Below, piece after piece: positions 1,654 through 59,959 of a DNA stretch of 64,000 nucleotides. The translations under genes were made by a program, and so were the position numbers. The notes under the pieces were generated by a model that was given only the letters and a program-made list of their open reading frames with translations, was not told the DNA's origin and ran no database searches. Location: positions 34,245 through 98,244 of the forward strand of contig UQJV01000001.1 in NCBI GenBank assembly GCA_900541475.1, written 5' to 3'. The DNA comes from an uncultured Collinsella sp. (GTDB lineage Bacteria > Actinomycetota > Coriobacteriia > Coriobacteriales > Coriobacteriaceae). The stretch's first letter is position 1; every line of letters starts with the position of its first letter.

Positions 1654-1711
1654 AATCTCGATCTGTAACATCTAGTCCCGATTTGGGCGTCTAGGTGTTA
1701 CAGATCGAGAT
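1654..1711. repeat. 57-58-bp palindromic element copy U1 (17-bp TIR ATCTCGATCTGTAACA / GTGTTACAGATCGAGAT, 24-nt core)
   Basis: Arms are reverse complements; core TCTAGTCCCGATTTGGGCGTCTAG related to cores of 6 other copies. Confidence 0.85.
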
Positions 1712-1856
1712 ATTTGGACAGGACGTTCTCTGTCATATCGAAGGGGGCGCTCCGTACGCCCGAACATGTACATGTCGGTAAGGTGGGAACTAGGGAACTT
1801 TACTAGGGAACTAGGAACCGCTGTTGGCTGAATCTCGCTCCGGGCGCAATTGCCCA

Positions 1857-1929
1857 TTTCCGGACATCCGCGGATAATGTCCGGAAATGGGTTGAAAATG
1901 TCCGGAAAAGGACGAAATGTCCGGAATAG
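1857..1929. promoter_or_regulatory. operator-like array A: TTCCGGACAT-N9-ATGTCCGGAA palindrome plus 2 further direct ATGTCCGGAA half-sites
   Basis: Seen directly; paralogous to arrays at 2235-2310 and 3746-3797. Confidence 0.6.
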
Positions 1930-2033
1930 TTGGGCTGTTCTACGCTTGGGTTGCCGTTATTCGGCTCTAAGTGTGGGCATGGGTTCCACTCCCATTCGGT
2001 GCTTTCGTTCCGATCATCAACTGCTCATATCAA

Positions 2034-2091
2034 AATCTTAATCTGTAACACCTAGATCTGATTTGGGCGGCCAACTGTTATAGATTAGGAC
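2034..2091. repeat. palindromic element copy U2
   Basis: AATCTTAATCTGTAACA-N24-CTGTTATAGATTAGGAC; core CCTAGATCTGATTTGGGCGGCCAA. Confidence 0.8.
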
Positions 2092-2234
2092 ATTCCGGCG
2101 GATAGCCCGCACTATGTCGAAGGAGTGTCCCGTACGTCTAATTTTGACGCATGCCAGACAGGTGTAAGGAACTCTGCTAGGGAGCTTGAGGGCTACTATT
2201 GGCCAGTTTCTATCTCGGACTCGGCGACTTCCTT

Positions 2235-2310
2235 TTCCGGACATTCGCGGGCGATGTCCGGAAAAGGGTTAAAAATGTCCGAATAACACTTAAAATGTCC
2301 CAAAAGAGCG
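2235..2310. promoter_or_regulatory. operator-like array B immediately upstream of the AlbA_2 gene (TTCCGGACAT-N9-ATGTCCGGAA plus degenerate half-sites)
   Basis: Seen directly; position suggests promoter/operator of CDS 2329-3723. Confidence 0.6.
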
Positions 2311-2328
2311 CGGCTGAAAGGCAAATGT

Positions 2329-3723
2329 ATGACTTCAGATGACATTGGAGAAATTCTCGCCAAAGGAGAGGGTGTTTCCATTGAATTTAAGCGATGCGGA
2401 AACCTTCCGGAAATCGATACGTTTGAAACGATTTGCTCTTTTGCGAATCGACAAGGAGGCAACATCCTGCTCGGGATTGTTGATGCTGAAAAATCCGACA
2501 CGGGGAAGCCTGAGGTCATTGGAATCGATTCTGCTCGTGTTGTCGAAATAGAGCGCAACATAGCGAATCGCTTGAATGATCCCAACTTCTTTAATGCTCC
2601 GCCTTCTATCGAGCTTGAGAGGGTTGAATATGAGGATAGGTTGGTTTTGCGTATCTGGGTGGTCGTCGGCGCCATCGTTCATAAATTGAAGGGTGTGGCG
2701 TATGACAGAATCGCCGATACGGATCGGAAAGTGACAACTGACACTCAGCTTGCGGCAATGTATATCCGTAAGCAGGATTACTATACCGAGCAGAGAGTCT
2801 ATCCCTATCTTGAGCTGGGGGACTTGCGTCTTGATTTGCTCGAACGGGTTAGGAGGATGGCGACAGCGAGACGTGCTAATCATCCATGGTCAGAGATGAA
2901 CGATGAAGATCTACTCCGAAGCGCAAATCTATATCTCAAAGACTACGAGACGGGTGTTGAGGGCTACACGTTTGCAGCCGCCCTTTTGCTTGGCAAAGAC
3001 AATGTGATTTCAAGTATCGCTCCGTCTTACAAAACTGATGCATACGTCCAGCGCGATGATGTGGACCGCTATGACGATCGTATTGTCGTGAAGACTAATC
3101 TTATCGAGGCGTACGATATTCTTCTGGAGTTCGCTCAGAAGCATCTGCCTGACAAGTTCTTTCTTGAGGGGACGCAATCGATTAGCCTGAGGGACGTCAT
3201 TTCGCGTGAGCTCATCGCTAACACGCTTATCCATCGCGAATACGCTAATCCTTACCCAGCAAAAATGGTTATCGATGCCGAGGGCATCCATACTGAGAAC
3301 GCGAGCCGCCCGCGATTCATCGGTGAGTTGTCGCCAAGCCATTTTAACCCGCTGCCTAAAAATCCCATCATTGCTGAGTTCTTTAGCAATATCGGTAGGG
3401 CAGAATCGTTGGGAAGTGGTACGAGAAATATGTTCAAGTACTCGTGGGCGTATGGCGGCGGTCAACCTGAGCTCGTTGAGGGCGATGTGTTTGATGCGCG
3501 TGTCCCCGTAGCGTCGAGTCTGGAGACGATTCAGAAGCTCGATGTCGATTGGGTCATTGAACGCATGCTGGAATCTTATGGGTACGTAACGGTAGCGGCG
3601 GTGGCGAATATCGCGAACGTTACCGAGAGGACGGTGCGAAGGCATATCTCCGATATGGTCGACGCCGGGGAGCTTCTGGGGGTCGGAGAGACGCGTGCAA
3701 GAAAGTTTGTCAGGGTGAAGTAA
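2329..3723 (+). CDS. AlbA_2 (Schlafen-like divergent AAA) + HATPase_c_4 + C-terminal wHTH protein ('RecG-like putative transcriptional regulator' family)
   Basis: N-term E.KR...E....ICSFANRQGGNILLGIVD matches AlbA_2 core; ISRELIANTLIHREY matches HATPase_c_4; C-terminal HTH-like VAAVANIANVTERTVRRHISDMVDAGEL. Confidence 0.75.
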   Translation: MTSDDIGEILAKGEGVSIEFKRCGNLPEIDTFETICSFANRQGGNILLGIVDAEKSDTGKPEVIGIDSARVVEIERNIANRLNDPNFFNAPPSIELERVEYEDRLVLRIWVVVGAIVHKLKGVAYDRIADTDRKVTTDTQLAAMYIRKQDYYTEQRVYPYLELGDLRLDLLERVRRMATARRANHPWSEMNDEDLLRSANLYLKDYETGVEGYTFAAALLLGKDNVISSIAPSYKTDAYVQRDDVDRYDDRIVVKTNLIEAYDILLEFAQKHLPDKFFLEGTQSISLRDVISRELIANTLIHREYANPYPAKMVIDAEGIHTENASRPRFIGELSPSHFNPLPKNPIIAEFFSNIGRAESLGSGTRNMFKYSWAYGGGQPELVEGDVFDARVPVASSLETIQKLDVDWVIERMLESYGYVTVAAVANIANVTERTVRRHISDMVDAGELLGVGETRARKFVRVK

Positions 3724-3745
3724 GGGAAGGACATGACGCCTCTCT

Positions 3746-3797
3746 TTCCGGACATTCGTGGACAATGTCCGTAATTAGGTCGAAATGTCCGGAATAG
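3746..3797. promoter_or_regulatory. operator-like array C downstream of AlbA_2 gene (TTCCGGACAT-N9-ATGTCCGTAA + GAAATGTCCGGAATAG)
   Basis: Seen directly. Confidence 0.55.
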
Positions 3798-3903
3798 CGG
3801 GGACGAGCTACATTTTGGTTGCCGAGATGCGGCCGTCCGCGCGGAAATGGTGTCACGACCCCGCCCTGTGTCTCTCGGCACTGTTCTTAACCTTTCAAAC
3901 TAG

Positions 3904-4122
3904 CATCTCGATCTGTAACATCTGGGGCCCATTTTGTCGAGTAACTGTTACAGATTTAGATCTTTCGGCAGGCTAGATTGGTTTGTCTCGATCTGTAACA
4001 GGTAGGGGTCAAAAGTGGGCCTAGCTGTTACAGATCTAGATTGTTGAGGATGGGTCGAGAGGAATGTCTCGATCTGTAACAGTAAGACCCGGTTTTGCCG
4101 AGTAACTGTTACAGATTGAGAC
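3904..4122. repeat. array of three palindromic element copies U3-U5 (3904-3962, 3985-4041, 4066-4122) separated by 22-23 bp; U4 core inverted relative to U3/U5
   Basis: Each: GTCTCGATCTGTAACA-N24-CTGTTACAGAT(C/T)(G/T)AGA(C/T); cores share GGCCC..TTTTG.CGAG.TAA. Confidence 0.85.
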
Positions 4123-4279: not shown

Positions 4280-6316
4280 ATGTCCATGACCGCACCTGCA
4301 TCCAAGCTGCTCCAGCCCATTACAGTTGGCCCCCTTGAGCTCAAGAACCGCATTATGTTCCCGCCGCTGACCACCGGCTACGAGGAGCGTGACGGCTCCA
4401 TTGGCGAGCGCAGCCTGGCTTTTTACGAGCGCCTGGCCCGTGGCGGCGTGAGCTACATCGTCATCGGCGACGTCGCTCCCGTCATGACCGCAAGCCCCAC
4501 GCCCAAGCTGGCAACCGACGCCCAGATCCCCACGTTTAAGGCGCTGGCCGATGCCGTTCACAAGCACGGTGCCAAGGTCGCGCTGCAGCTGTTCCACCCC
4601 GAGTACGACGTGCCCGGTGTCGGCCGCATGGTCATGGGATCCATGGCTGCCGCCAAGGCCGCGCAGGAGGCCAAGGCCGCCGGCGACGAGGAGACCTTTG
4701 CCGCCAAGATGGCCGAGTCCAACGAGATTCGCAAGCAGGCATACGCCAAGCTGCACCACGATATGCAGCACTTTGTGAACGAGGCCAGCGTGGAGCAGCT
4801 CACCCAGATCAAGGAAGCCATCGCTGCCTCGGCCGCTCGCGCGCAGCAGGCCGGCATCGACGCCATCGAGGTCCACGGCGACCGCCTGGTGGGTTCGCTG
4901 TGCTCGGCCATCCTCAACCAGCGCACCGACGAGTACGGTGGCTCGTTCGAGAATCGCGTTCGCTACGCGCTCGAGGTCGTCGCTGCCATTAAGGAAGCCG
5001 CGCCGCAGCTGATGGTGGAGTACAAGCTCCCCGTGATCATGGAGAACCCCGACGGCACGCCGCGCGGCAAGGGCGGCCTGCAGCCCGACGAGGCCTGCGA
5101 GTTCGCCAAGCTGCTCGAGGGCGCCGGCATCGACATGATCCAGGTCGCGCAGGCAAACCATACCGGCAACATGGGCGATACCATTCCGCCCATGGGCGCC
5201 ATGCCCTACAACTGGACGCTGCCGGTGGCCGAGCGCGTTAAGGCCCTGGTCTCCGTGCCGGTGGCCACCGTCGGCCGTGTTGTCTCGGTCGAGGCCGGCG
5301 AAAAGATTCTGGAAGACGGCGCGGCCGACATCATCGCCTATGGCCGCTCGCTCATGTGCGACCCCGACATTGCGCTGAAGGCCGCCACGGGTGAGCCCAT
5401 CCGCGAGTGCCTCAACTGCAACAAGGGCTGCGTCGACGCGATTCAAAACCGCAAGTACATCTCGTGCGTGCTCAATGCCGAGAACGGCGACGAGGCGACC
5501 ATCGCCATTAAGCCGGGCGAGGGCGACAAGAAGATCGCCGTGGTGGGCGGCGGCATCGCCGGCCTGGAGGCCGCGCGCGTGGCGGCCAAGCGCGGCTACG
5601 ACGTGACCGTCTACGAGGCGAGCGATCACTTGGGCGGCCAGATTGTGCTGGCGGCCGCGCCTCCGCGCAAGGACGAGATCATGCGCTCCGTCGAGTACTA
5701 CGAGAAGATTCTGCCCGGCCTGGGCGTGAAGGTTGAGCTCAACCATGCCGCTACCGCTGAGGACCTCAACGCCGCCGACGCCGCGATTGTGGCCGTGGGC
5801 GCGCACGACGTGGTCATCCCTGTTCCGGGTGCCGACTCGGACAAGGTCGTCTCGAGCTGGGACGTGCTGGCCGGCAAGGTGGAGCTTACGGGCCGCGTCG
5901 CCGTCATTGGCGGTGGCCTGGTGGGCACCGAGACTGCCGAGTACCTGCTGCAGCACGGCTGCGAGGTGGCGATCGTGGAGATGCTCGACAAGATTGCCGC
6001 GGGCGAGTCCGAGACCATTCTGCCGCTGATCATGGGCGACTTTGCCGAGCACAACGTGGAGCAGCACGTGAAGACCCGCCTGACCGCCATTACCGACGAG
6101 GGCGTGGAGGCCATTCGCACCACTGAGGACGGCGCCGAGGAGCCGGTGAAAATCGCCTGCGATTACGTGGTGATGGCCGTGGGCTCCAAGGCCAACGCGT
6201 TTGACCTGGACGGCGTGACGGTGCCCATGACCTGCGTGGGCGACTGCTCGGGCGAGCGCACCGCCGATATCGCGAGCGCCATCCGCACGGCATATCACGC
6301 GGCCAACGAGCTGTAG
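4280..6316 (+). CDS. NADH:flavin oxidoreductase (OYE-like TIM barrel with 4Fe-4S Cys cluster) fused to FAD/NAD(P)-binding oxidoreductase domain (2,4-dienoyl-CoA reductase / enoate reductase family)
   Basis: 678 aa; CLNCNKGC cysteine motif after the OYE-like barrel; C-terminal KKIAVVGGGIAGLEAARVAAKRGYDVTVYE Rossmann motif and second VAVIGGGLVGTE motif. Confidence 0.8.
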   Translation: MSMTAPASKLLQPITVGPLELKNRIMFPPLTTGYEERDGSIGERSLAFYERLARGGVSYIVIGDVAPVMTASPTPKLATDAQIPTFKALADAVHKHGAKVALQLFHPEYDVPGVGRMVMGSMAAAKAAQEAKAAGDEETFAAKMAESNEIRKQAYAKLHHDMQHFVNEASVEQLTQIKEAIAASAARAQQAGIDAIEVHGDRLVGSLCSAILNQRTDEYGGSFENRVRYALEVVAAIKEAAPQLMVEYKLPVIMENPDGTPRGKGGLQPDEACEFAKLLEGAGIDMIQVAQANHTGNMGDTIPPMGAMPYNWTLPVAERVKALVSVPVATVGRVVSVEAGEKILEDGAADIIAYGRSLMCDPDIALKAATGEPIRECLNCNKGCVDAIQNRKYISCVLNAENGDEATIAIKPGEGDKKIAVVGGGIAGLEAARVAAKRGYDVTVYEASDHLGGQIVLAAAPPRKDEIMRSVEYYEKILPGLGVKVELNHAATAEDLNAADAAIVAVGAHDVVIPVPGADSDKVVSSWDVLAGKVELTGRVAVIGGGLVGTETAEYLLQHGCEVAIVEMLDKIAAGESETILPLIMGDFAEHNVEQHVKTRLTAITDEGVEAIRTTEDGAEEPVKIACDYVVMAVGSKANAFDLDGVTVPMTCVGDCSGERTADIASAIRTAYHAANEL

Positions 6317-57533: not shown

Positions 57534-58184
57534 GTGAACATGCATATCTACTCTGTCTCTGATCCCGAGTTCAAGTCCTATGGCCGCGTGTGGGATGACG
57601 TTCCGTCCAGCCTGACCGCTCCACTCGTCGAGGCACTCGCGGCTACGCCCATCCCCGAGGGCAGCAAATACGTGGCCTCCGCGCCCGAGCTCGAGCAGGT
57701 TGAGGGCGCCGACACGCTCGGCCTGCTCATGTACGGCGGCCGCCCCTTCCAGCTCGGCTGGTGCAACGGCCACAACACACGACTCAACTGTCTGGAGTAT
57801 CACCGCGCGAGTGAGTTTAACCTGGGCGCCCGCGACTTTATCCTGCTCGTGGCGCATCGCTGGGAGATCGAGGACGGAAAGCTCGATACCGCTCAGGTCA
57901 AGGCGTTCCGCGTGCCGGCGGGCAAGGTTGTCGAGGTCTTCAACACCACGCTCCACTACACGCCGTGCATGGTCGATGAAAGCGGCTTCCAGGTGATGGT
58001 GGCGCTGCCCGCCGGTACCAACGGTCCGCGCCCCGAGGCCGCAACCGACATGCCTGCCGCCGGTGACAGCTACTGCTACTGGAAGGCCGACAAGTGGGTC
58101 CTCTGCCATGCTGACAGCCCCAAGGCAGCCGAAGGCGGCTACGTGGGCCTCATCGGAAAGAACCTCGACATCGCCTGCGACTAG
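57534..58184 (+). CDS. hypothetical protein (possibly DUF4867-like)
   Basis: ORF only. Confidence 0.4.
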   Translation: MNMHIYSVSDPEFKSYGRVWDDVPSSLTAPLVEALAATPIPEGSKYVASAPELEQVEGADTLGLLMYGGRPFQLGWCNGHNTRLNCLEYHRASEFNLGARDFILLVAHRWEIEDGKLDTAQVKAFRVPAGKVVEVFNTTLHYTPCMVDESGFQVMVALPAGTNGPRPEAATDMPAAGDSYCYWKADKWVLCHADSPKAAEGGYVGLIGKNLDIACD

Positions 58185-58192
58185 AATCTTCT

Positions 58193-58330
58193 GTCTCAAT
58201 CTGTAACACCTAGCGGGCTAAATCGCCTCTACCTGTTATAGATCGAGACAAACCGTAGAGGGCCGCCCGAACAATCTCAATCTGTAACACCGGGCCCGGT
58301 TTTGGCGGCCTAACTGTTACAGATCGAGAC
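58193..58330. repeat. two palindromic element copies U6 (58193-58249, inverted core) and U7 (58275-58330)
   Basis: GTCTCAATCTGTAACA-N24-CTGTTATAGATCGAGAC and TCTCAATCTGTAACA-N24-CTGTTACAGATCGAGAC. Confidence 0.85.
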
Positions 58331-58525
58331 AAACGGGCCCCAGCCATCACAAAGGTGACTGTCCCCTTTGCGGTGGCTGGGGCAGGTGGGTATCAAAAAG
58401 TGTCAGACGGGGTGGTTGCCGGGCGCCTGCACGCGAAAAGAAGTATCGGCCTGCGCCGTTGCCGTTGAGCGACGCGTTGTTTGCAGGGATACTGAGCCTA
58501 TGACAACAGCGTGCGAAAGGATTGA

Positions 58526-59959
<1,434 letters not shown>

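Follow-up and report, generated by a model that had tools for sequence, protein, structure and literature searches.

In this study, we analysed a 64,000-nt stretch of DNA from an uncultured Collinsella sp. (contig UQJV01000001.1, positions 34,245 to 98,244; GC content 60.6%), referred to below as the window, which carries seven 57-bp palindromic units in two regions, one between a tRNA-Met gene and a gene for an NADH:flavin oxidoreductase and the other between a DUF4867 gene and a GH1 glycosidase gene. These units belong to a genus-wide family of phased palindromic repeats for which no earlier description was found. A preliminary description of this DNA had proposed a palindromic family of seven copies, and the family is real, with none of the seven units attributable to chance: the pattern CTGTAACA-N20-28-TGTTACAG gave 5 matches in the window against 0 in 100 shuffles, and the 16-nt arm GTCTCGATCTGTAACA, with at most three mismatches allowed, gave 13 matches against 0.24 expected. 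All 13 arm matches fall within the seven units, and the same scan found no solo arms in the 64-kb window. The units and the sequences between them are the following.

1655..1711, no strand: U1; perfect arms ATCTCGATCTGTAACA and TGTTACAGATCGAGAT; core of 25 nt, TTT on the + strand
1712..3904, + strand: strain-specific low-GC insertion, which is not part of the unit family and splits the array
2035..2091, no strand: U2; degenerate, with 3 mismatches in the left arm and TGTTATAGATTAGGAC as the right arm
3905..3961, no strand: U3; core in + orientation; orthologue of the second unit at that locus elsewhere
3962..3984, no strand: inter-unit spacer of 23 bp; length constrained, sequence not conserved
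3985..4041, no strand: U4; core flipped, with AAAA on the + strand
4042-4065 and 58250-58273, no strand: further inter-unit spacers, 24 bp each
4066..4122, no strand: U5; core in + orientation; last unit before the NADH:flavin oxidoreductase gene (4280-6316)
58193..58249, no strand: U6; core flipped; begins 9 bp past the stop codon of the DUF4867 gene (57534-58184)
58274..58330, no strand: U7; core in + orientation; upstream of the GH1 glycosidase gene (58529-59959)

Each unit consists of two inverted arms of 16-20 bp, (GTTT)GTCTCGATCTGTAACA, with their centres 41 bp apart; the 25-bp core that they enclose is constant in length and loosely conserved in sequence (nnTAG......TTT......CTAnn). A single arm GTCTCGATCTGTAACA forms no hairpin by itself; it takes two arms, 25 nt apart, to make the palindrome. 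The consensus, with units oriented by expectation-maximisation, reads (gttt)GTCTC(G/A)ATCTGTAACA nnTAGa.c.g.TTT.g.c..CTAgn TGTTACAGAT(C/T)GAGAC(aaac), and the three units at 3904-4122 read (G/A)TCTCGATCTGTAACA, 25 nt, TGTTACAGAT(C/T)(G/T)AGA(C/T). The core had been given as 24 nt; the stretch from TGTAACA to TGTTACA measures 25 nt. The perfect 17-bp terminal inverted repeat of the preliminary description is a property of the consensus and not of single copies, which carry 0-4 mismatches in 16 nt (mean 1.74 over 334 distinct units, with perfect arms in only 52). The polarity of the core is real, with a conserved central TTT, conserved flanking TAG/CTA and a median orientation score difference of 13.6 nats, and the inversion noted earlier for U4 and U6 is plain from the AAA that replaces TTT at their centres. 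Both polarities are mixed within arrays, without strict alternation.

The units are strictly phased. Start-to-start distances within the window clusters are 80, 81 and 81 bp, and a census of 120 sampled loci together with the window, in which two mismatches were allowed per inner arm, counted 374 units with neighbour distances of 80 bp in 128 cases and 81 bp in 88 (together 216 of 253). Among 223 spacers, inner 10-nt arm motifs are separated by 35 nt in 128, 36 nt in 88 and 34 nt in 7, and the spacers have almost no information content beyond the arm tips, their length being fixed at 23-25 bp between units. Since the arm-to-arm spacing is fixed and the spacer sequence is free, the underlying regularity is an arm every 40-41 bp in alternating orientation, with a period of 80/81 bp; a core length of 25 nt was used in defining a unit, and its conservation is read from the 80/81-bp period and the spacers of 34-36 nt. 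Distances of twice the period account for only 2 of 253, so that few units have decayed within arrays.

When one genome of each prokaryotic species was scanned with the pattern ATCTGTAACA-N23-27-TGTTACAGAT, exact matches came from no less than 120 loci, nearly all of them labelled Collinsella, and we take the few loci with another or no genus label as misbinned or unlabelled metagenome-assembled genomes. The genes that flank the units of the window are 88-98% identical to those at the fetched Collinsella loci, which assigns the window to a Collinsella of the aerofaciens group. In a C. aerofaciens record of 0.9 Mb, the consensus unit is matched in at least 32 places, and the density of about one array per 28 kb in this replicon is in line with the window. 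Clusters hold 1-5 units, with singletons making up 24 of 151, and 362 of 368 units lie outside called genes; we read the 6 overlaps, at the ends of open reading frames (ORFs) bordering the arrays of the nuclease locus described below, as ORF-calling artefacts. Of the intergenic regions with arrays, 43 are convergent, 39 divergent and 32 tandem, and many units lie just 3' of stop codons (median 71 bp). The family thus agrees with the REP/BIME-type interspersed palindrome (repetitive extragenic palindrome; bacterial interspersed mosaic element) that had been suggested, being genus-wide, clustered and nearly all intergenic, and the unit is, as also suggested, a discrete, repeated and orientation-independent element rather than a local operator. 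According to the preliminary description, mobility would be unlikely if copies existed only at these loci and were invariant; copies are found across the genus, and their number differs between species in whole-unit steps. A phage or plasmid origin was rejected, with only 12 matching viral contigs, several of them with the match at the edge of the fetched stretch, and with the 0.9-Mb Collinsella replicon as the only record matched by the consensus unit in a collection of 72,556 plasmid records. No prior description was found in the literature on Collinsella repeats, in surveys of MITEs (miniature inverted-repeat transposable elements) or in work linking DUF559 or AbiEi to repeats, and Collinsella goes unmentioned in a large MITE survey; as far as we could find, this would be the first such repeat described in Collinsella.

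It had been noted that each copy could form a stem-loop, and the results do not bear out the stem-loop as the functional entity. Units fold as RNA with energies of -17 to -41 kcal/mol and z-scores down to -9.7, and good folding is expected of any inverted repeat. Across 334 units, the pairs at columns 9/55 are G-C in 99, G-T in 80, A-T in 79 and A-C in 74, against 79 A-C expected if the two columns were independent. Swapping right arms between units left the number of mismatches unchanged (1.74 observed, 1.76 ± 0.04 swapped) as well as the folding energy (-24.3 observed, -24.4 kcal/mol with swapped arms), cores fold with -3.3 kcal/mol against -4.0 kcal/mol for column-shuffled cores, and only one weak covarying pair was detected. 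A selected hairpin was therefore rejected on covariation, arm-swap and column-shuffle tests alike. An intrinsic terminator was rejected as well: there is no T-run after the stem and a terminator scan makes no call at the units, unit polarity relative to the adjacent gene is random (148/160 downstream, 136/140 upstream), and 39 arrays lie between divergent genes. Searches of the window against Rfam found only the tRNA at the gathering threshold and, in E-value mode, only sub-threshold miRNA-hairpin artefacts, and a structured RNA was accordingly dismissed.

Conservation lies instead in the arm sequence. At orthologous sites in genomes of <93% identity, the substitution rates were as follows.

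Inner arm: 5.2%
Outer arm: 11%
Core: 22.6%
Surrounding DNA: 15.8%

Inner arms thus change 3-4 times more slowly than cores and spacers at orthologous sites, a contrast between arm and core that is inflated by ascertainment, as the units were found via their inner arms. What is conserved in the arms is their sequence and not a hairpin. Since they are conserved and vary independently of one another, and since core and spacer keep their lengths as their sequences drift, the pattern fits a protein that recognises the sequence of each arm, under geometric limits on spacing. Within the arms, strong polymorphism is confined to the CG of TCGA, which changes to CA or TG independently in the two arms (TC(G/A)ATC sites in all units, e.g. 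3909-3914 and 4112-4117 of the window); this suggests a CpG-type transition hot spot, possibly linked to cytosine methylation.

One gene recurs between two unit clusters. It encodes a protein of 358-364 aa at a single conserved locus, from the gltB-gltD operon to an amidohydrolase gene, and it stands between unit arrays in 10 of 10 genomes: in nine species, 2-5 units lie immediately upstream and 1-4 immediately downstream, and C. aerofaciens has 4 + 2 units around one copy of the gene in 0.9 Mb. Contigs with the gene are mostly only 1-5 kb long, some of the fetched ones ending close to it, which fits assembly breaks in the flanking repeats. Its close relatives are annotated just as Collinsella hypothetical proteins, and Pfam and NCBIfam gave nothing significant for the protein (DUF559 at E 0.024; AbiEi_4 in 3 of 60 members). 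An exhaustive HMMER search returned 4,665 representatives at E < 1e-3, as sequences without an assigned source organism, and D186, E232, S233, R236, D266, E280, D282, G283, K286, E304, R307, E308 and R320 are invariant in an alignment of 60 members. The fold is visible only by structure prediction: the AlphaFold2 model (pLDDT 90.6) matches the catalytic domain of I-Bth0305I (10.2), Vsr (9.8), NGO0050 (9.6) and, with its N-terminal part, the AbiEi antitoxin (8.2). I-Bth0305I, Vsr and NGO0050 are the structures that define the Vsr/DUF559 clade of PD-(D/E)xK nucleases (PMC3424549), and AbiEi antitoxins bind inverted repeats and are of winged-helix type (PMC7319586). On this model, the protein is predicted to be an AbiEi-like winged helix-turn-helix (wHTH) N-terminus joined to a Vsr/DUF559-type PD-(D/E)xK nuclease C-terminus, the modelled fold and the conserved acidic and lysine residues both agreeing with membership of that clade. 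It differs from the known Vsr/DUF559/I-Bth0305I and AbiEi systems in that it lacks an AbiEii toxin gene as partner and is not set in an intron or intein, and no published link between such a wHTH-nuclease fusion and repeat arrays was found in the literature on DUF559 and AbiEi.

Relatives of the nuclease gene have palindromes of their own. All 12 relatives with fetchable flanking DNA were examined, 10 of them being assessable on both flanks; each of the 12 has at least one adjacent long palindrome, and in 7 of the 10 lineage-specific palindromes match between the two flanks. As a control, 22 neighbouring genes from the loci of six relatives were compared, and only 1 shares a repeat between its flanks, itself inside another array. 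The relatives are listed with their identity to the nuclease protein.

Collinsella paralogue, 36%: a different palindrome on both sides, with 25-nt arms GAGCGTGGATAATCTCCC... and an 18-nt loop, plus 22-bp tandem half-sites
L134, syntenic orthologue, 58%: 3 units left and 3-4 right, with 16-nt arms CGTGCGTATCTCAGAC, 25 nt between them and an 81-82-bp period
L143, 46%: another arm sequence, in 3 units on the left and 4 on the right, phased at 82 bp
L135/L136, 36%: 75-88-nt direct repeats on both sides, each with a long palindrome
L137, 41%: 91-nt direct repeats on both sides, each with a long palindrome
L138, 39%: 140-nt direct repeats on both sides, each with long palindromes
L139, 39%: palindromes on both sides, just partly alike
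L140, 44%: repeat at one side only
L144, 42%: repeat at one side only
L141 and L142, 35% and 38%: one flank cut by the contig end, palindrome on the other

Arrays phased at 81-82 bp are found in three lineages, flanking the gene in L134 and L143 and differing in arm sequence, and the outer tip GTTTGTC is common to the repeats of Collinsella, L134, L137 and L138. A variant of the L134 repeat, with arms GTCACAGATGCGCACG, is arrayed in a second intergenic region of that locus (200-700), so that Collinsella is not the only lineage in which the cognate repeat has dispersed. Around the Collinsella paralogue, we observed a third dispersed Collinsella repeat, famB, composed of a 22-bp tandem GACGAGCGTGGATTTTCGGACG and the palindrome GAGCGTGGATAATCTCCC-N18-GGGAGATTATCCACGCTC (L025 1430-1581 and 2851-2982; L044 6119-6246 and 7526-7646; L116 2454-2477 and 4402-4424). 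It flanks the nuclease paralogue and also a 493-aa gene whose N-terminal sequence looks AlbA_2-like.

Differences of ±1, ±2 or more 80.5-bp steps are very common between orthologous arrays. The gap from tRNA-Met to the NADH:flavin oxidoreductase gene was compared in seven further Collinsella genomes, where it measures 433-525 bp and contains 3 or 4 units without interruption; three of these genomes have the equivalent of the flipped unit U4 with its spacer (81 bp), and four do not. U1, the first unit of this tRNA-Met-proximal array, has an orthologous unit in 7 Collinsella genomes besides that of the window. A recent 81-bp tandem duplication is marked in L013 by two near-identical neighbouring modules, and L093 and L133 have one decayed unit where other genomes hold 2-4 intact units. 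As an account of the arrays in general, recent tandem duplication was rejected, adjacent cores and spacers having diverged like random pairs, and phase-variable inversion of the core was also set aside, since the 11 of 924 orthologous comparisons that look flipped can be explained by insertion or deletion of units.

Two arrays have taken up foreign genes. In the window, where the tRNA-Met at 1490-1566 adjoins the split array, a strain-specific, low-GC insertion of ~2.2 kb lies between U1 and U3, so that the units at 1655/2035 and those at 3905-4122 form one ancestral array, in agreement with the two loci counted in the preliminary description. U2 sits within the insertion and belongs to a ~380-bp tandem duplication of the U1 region (1642-1722 against 2022-2102, 67% identity). 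Native genes have a GC3 of ~0.8, the inserted gene (2329-3723) one of 0.55, and the latter gives an SLFN/AlbA_2 match at E 1.3e-11. The DUF4867-GH1 array has two units in the window, L048 and L070, and orthologues of U6 are present in L035, L043, L048 and L070. In L035 (4801-6100) and L043 (2489-3785), the region orthologous to window 58190-58335 holds an inserted gene for a 368-aa AAA_16/ATPase_2 protein with a possible C-terminal HTH (weak NCBIfam matches only), bordered by a ~87%-identical copy of the last 65 nt of the DUF4867 gene and by two units. An inverted copy of the hairpin that trails U7 (about 58345-58385) is also present at this insertion. Having received foreign genes on two separate occasions, the unit arrays resemble hot spots of gene insertion, and their stepwise variation makes them markers for Collinsella strain typing, in the manner of variable-number tandem repeats.

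That the units form a REP-like repeat family is secure. With REP/BIME repeats, especially BIME-2, they share the character of short, high-copy, extragenic non-coding palindromes that are clustered and occur in both orientations, with a conserved motif alternating in orientation, linkers of set length and a copy number that varies between strains; high copy within one genome, the alternating motif and defined linkers were all found here. They differ in that a REP is a ~35-bp G+C-rich imperfect stem-loop whereas the unit arm has no internal hairpin, and further in an unrelated arm sequence, an actinobacterial host (Coriobacteriia), a tighter 80/81-bp phasing and the lack of a detected REP-associated tyrosine transposase (RAYT). 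With REPINs (REP doublets forming hairpins), they share two inverted, conserved ends of ~16 nt around a less conserved spacer of conserved, meaningful length, and an arrangement in doublets and higher-order clusters. REPIN clusters stand next to RAYT genes (Bertels and Rainey 2011, PMC3116915), and in the units, too, notable clusters adjoin a single-copy, vertically inherited enzyme gene, with enzyme lineages or paralogues going with different repeat flavours. A single-copy enzyme, a dispersed repeat and lineage flavours define the REP/REPIN-RAYT system (PMC3116915; PMC5581495). In contrast to REPINs, in which a hairpin is maintained and compensatory changes are common (PMC3116915), none were found in the units; the partner would be a wHTH and Vsr/DUF559-type nuclease, not an HUH/Y1 transposase; no excision intermediates were observed; and phased arrays are the rule. 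The units therefore behave like REP/BIME/REPIN repeats but depart from them in two defining respects, the arm not being a stem-loop and no RAYT having been found in the 0.9 Mb of unit-bearing loci scanned.

We consider it somewhat probable that the units are a REP/BIME/REPIN-like, Collinsella-wide repeat family tied to a non-HUH nuclease. A single-copy gene at a conserved locus amid a dispersed repeat, with related genes that carry other flavours, leads us to read the units as cognate sites, and the link of repeat to nuclease protein is correlational. Under this proposal, the arms would be binding sites of the wHTH-nuclease protein, which would bind arm pairs as an oligomer whose geometry sets the 41/40-bp spacing. 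By acting on the conserved outer tip (GTTTGTC) or close to it, the nuclease might then start break-and-repair or recombination, by which units would be added, removed and occasionally seeded. The relation of unit to nuclease would parallel that of REPs and REPINs to a single-copy RAYT, with a different catalytic fold. For the host, insulation, nucleoid shaping and recombination hot spots are possible by-products. We also put forward, tentatively and as a rather doubtful extension, that across the family of AbiEi-wHTH and Vsr/DUF559 fusions each lineage may maintain its own palindrome, often phased at 81-82 bp, which some lineages, such as Collinsella, would have amplified genome-wide.

Several observations weigh against this proposal. 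The link between repeat and nuclease is inferred from position, and this gene is absent from the window itself; an Nramp gene, a phosphoglycerate mutase gene and a kinase/FHA pair are also flanked by unit arrays on both sides, and double flanking is therefore not unique to the nuclease gene. Among the 10 assessable relatives, 3 (L139, L140, L144) have no matching repeat on one side. Genes of AlbA_2 type, that of the window included, lie between other palindrome families, and famB is shared between one of them and the nuclease paralogue, so that a looser rule may apply, in which variable wHTH or DNA-binding genes live in palindromic arrays without strict pairing of one protein with one repeat. 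Adjacent units are as unlike as random ones (12.2 against 12.3 differences in 25), hence most arrays are old, and active spread was not observed; neither a clean empty site nor an excision footprint was found, only steps in copy number and one decayed unit. Finally, the loci were fetched by exact arm match, which inflates arm conservation and favours unit-rich loci.

Few non-coding elements are as common in bacterial genomes as REP-type repeats, and the only dedicated enzyme partner known is the HUH transposase RAYT. If the family-wide extension is true, the units would be satellite DNA in a repeat-enzyme partnership not recognised before, which would work like REP/REPIN-RAYT with a non-HUH nuclease in place of the transposase and represent a new mechanism by which interspersed bacterial repeats are made and kept. 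Should the link hold, it would represent a second, independent route to a symbiosis of repeat and enzyme, give a function to a large family of "hypothetical" proteins, give a reason why Collinsella assemblies break at arrays, and provide natural pairs of a sequence-specific DNA-binding nuclease and a target of roughly 20 bp. Collinsella, a prevalent human-gut genus of the Coriobacteriia, offers here a candidate partner from a different nuclease superfamily, whose relatives have palindromes specific to their lineages.

The conservation of arms and spacing might also be explained by architectural or regulatory sites, with an unrelated nucleoid-associated protein or global regulator binding the arms cooperatively, host-level selection keeping the arrays, and copy number changing via slippage or unequal crossing-over only. 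Apparent purifying selection on the arms at orthologous sites, fixed spacing with free spacer sequence, the age of adjacent units, diverged like random pairs, and the presence of arrays in all three kinds of intergenic region (39 divergent, 43 convergent, 32 tandem) are all in keeping with it, and E. coli BIMEs are bound by integration host factor and gyrase. We nevertheless regard it as unlikely, since it leaves unexplained both the origin of hundreds of 57-bp sites and the two-flank palindromes of the nuclease relatives (7/10 against 1/22 controls), and no candidate regulator was identified. The units had also been compared with small MITEs, in which case the arms would be terminal inverted repeats of an unseen insertion sequence (IS) of DDE type and the units would be moved in trans. 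Short, non-coding, intergenic copies in high number and in both orientations, with terminal inverted repeats and with presence or absence between species, resemble bacterial MITEs such as Correia, RUP, BOX and Nezha elements; the 57-bp unit is, however, much smaller and strictly phased, which independent insertions would not produce. Moreover, its flanks are palindromic (GTTT...AAAC) or unrelated and thus show no direct target-site duplication, the search for a clean empty site came up with none, and across the ~1 Mb of loci sampled no transposase gene is enclosed by a pair of arms; nor was an autonomous element with unit termini and a DDE transposase or matching IS found in these loci, the window or the plasmid and phage collections, the plasmid collection matching only the Collinsella replicon. 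A classical MITE is thus quite improbable.

An RNA or single-stranded DNA hairpin, acting as a terminator, a stabiliser of mRNA 3' ends, a small RNA or a substrate of an HUH enzyme of RAYT or IS200 type, appears very improbable to us. Every unit can fold into a long hairpin, many units lie just past stop codons, and an IS200 tnpA exists in C. aerofaciens, yet compensatory covariation and depletion of A-C mismatches are missing on either strand, arms pair equally well after swapping, orientation is random to transcription without T-run or terminator call and with 39 divergent arrays, and Rfam gives nothing beyond spurious miRNA-hairpin matches. A co-occurring IS200/RAYT-type enzyme, for which the preliminary description had suggested a search, was not found next to the units: a motif scan of 0.9 Mb of unit-bearing loci by regular expression, a weak test, gave no RAYT-like protein, and the one IS200 near a decayed unit has ends (CCACCC...GGGTGG) unlike the arms. 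This is an ordinary IS200-family tnpA of 152 aa (L133 1888-2346; C. aerofaciens NZ_OY725717.1 422883-423341), with its own CCACCC/GGGTGG end hairpins, located between a terminator and the decayed unit downstream of an Nramp gene. The suggested likeness to integron attC sites, by which the units would be site-specific recombination sites marking gene cassettes in an integron or in a cluster of attC sites lacking an integrase (CALIN), is hardly credible. In attC sites, the structure is conserved and the sequence variable, with the consensus RYYYAAC...GTTRRRY. The 57-bp size, close to the attC minimum, and the imperfect inverted arms with AAC...GTT fit loosely, and two arrays hold strain-specific single-gene insertions bordered by duplicated units; in the units, however, sequence is kept and structure is not, the reverse of attC, CTGTAAC breaks RYYYAAC at two positions, R''/R' do not fit, and most arrays have no gene between units (24-bp spacers, no ORF) and hence no cassettes. 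No integrase was seen among annotated or Pfam-scanned neighbours of arrays, and the 65 nt of the upstream gene duplicated at the L035 insertion point to homology-driven rearrangement rather than site-specific recombination. A CRISPR array was rejected too, as the motif alternates in orientation, adjacent cores differ at 12.2 of 25 positions, and 1-5 units occur at hundreds of loci. Accordingly, the units cannot be classed as CRISPR arrays, attC sites, terminators or a known RNA, nor, strictly speaking, as MITEs.

A separate local repeat, famA, lies around the SLFN/AlbA_2 gene of the window. It takes the form TTCCGGACAT-N9-ATGTCCGGAA with half-sites, or, as the palindrome, CCATTTCCGGACAT-N9-ATGTCCGGAAATGG with extra ATGTCCGGAA half-sites, and occurs at 1854-1930, 2231-2305 and 3742-3797, on both sides of the AlbA_2-type gene and also directly upstream of its start. 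The ~380-bp tandem duplication in the insertion (1642-2022 against 2022-2400) carries U2 together with a copy of the famA array. No fetched locus other than the window has famA in two or more copies, and a link between the units and this neighbouring TCCGGACAT repeat was rejected, since it is multicopy only in this window; famA may represent an operator or the ends of a cassette.

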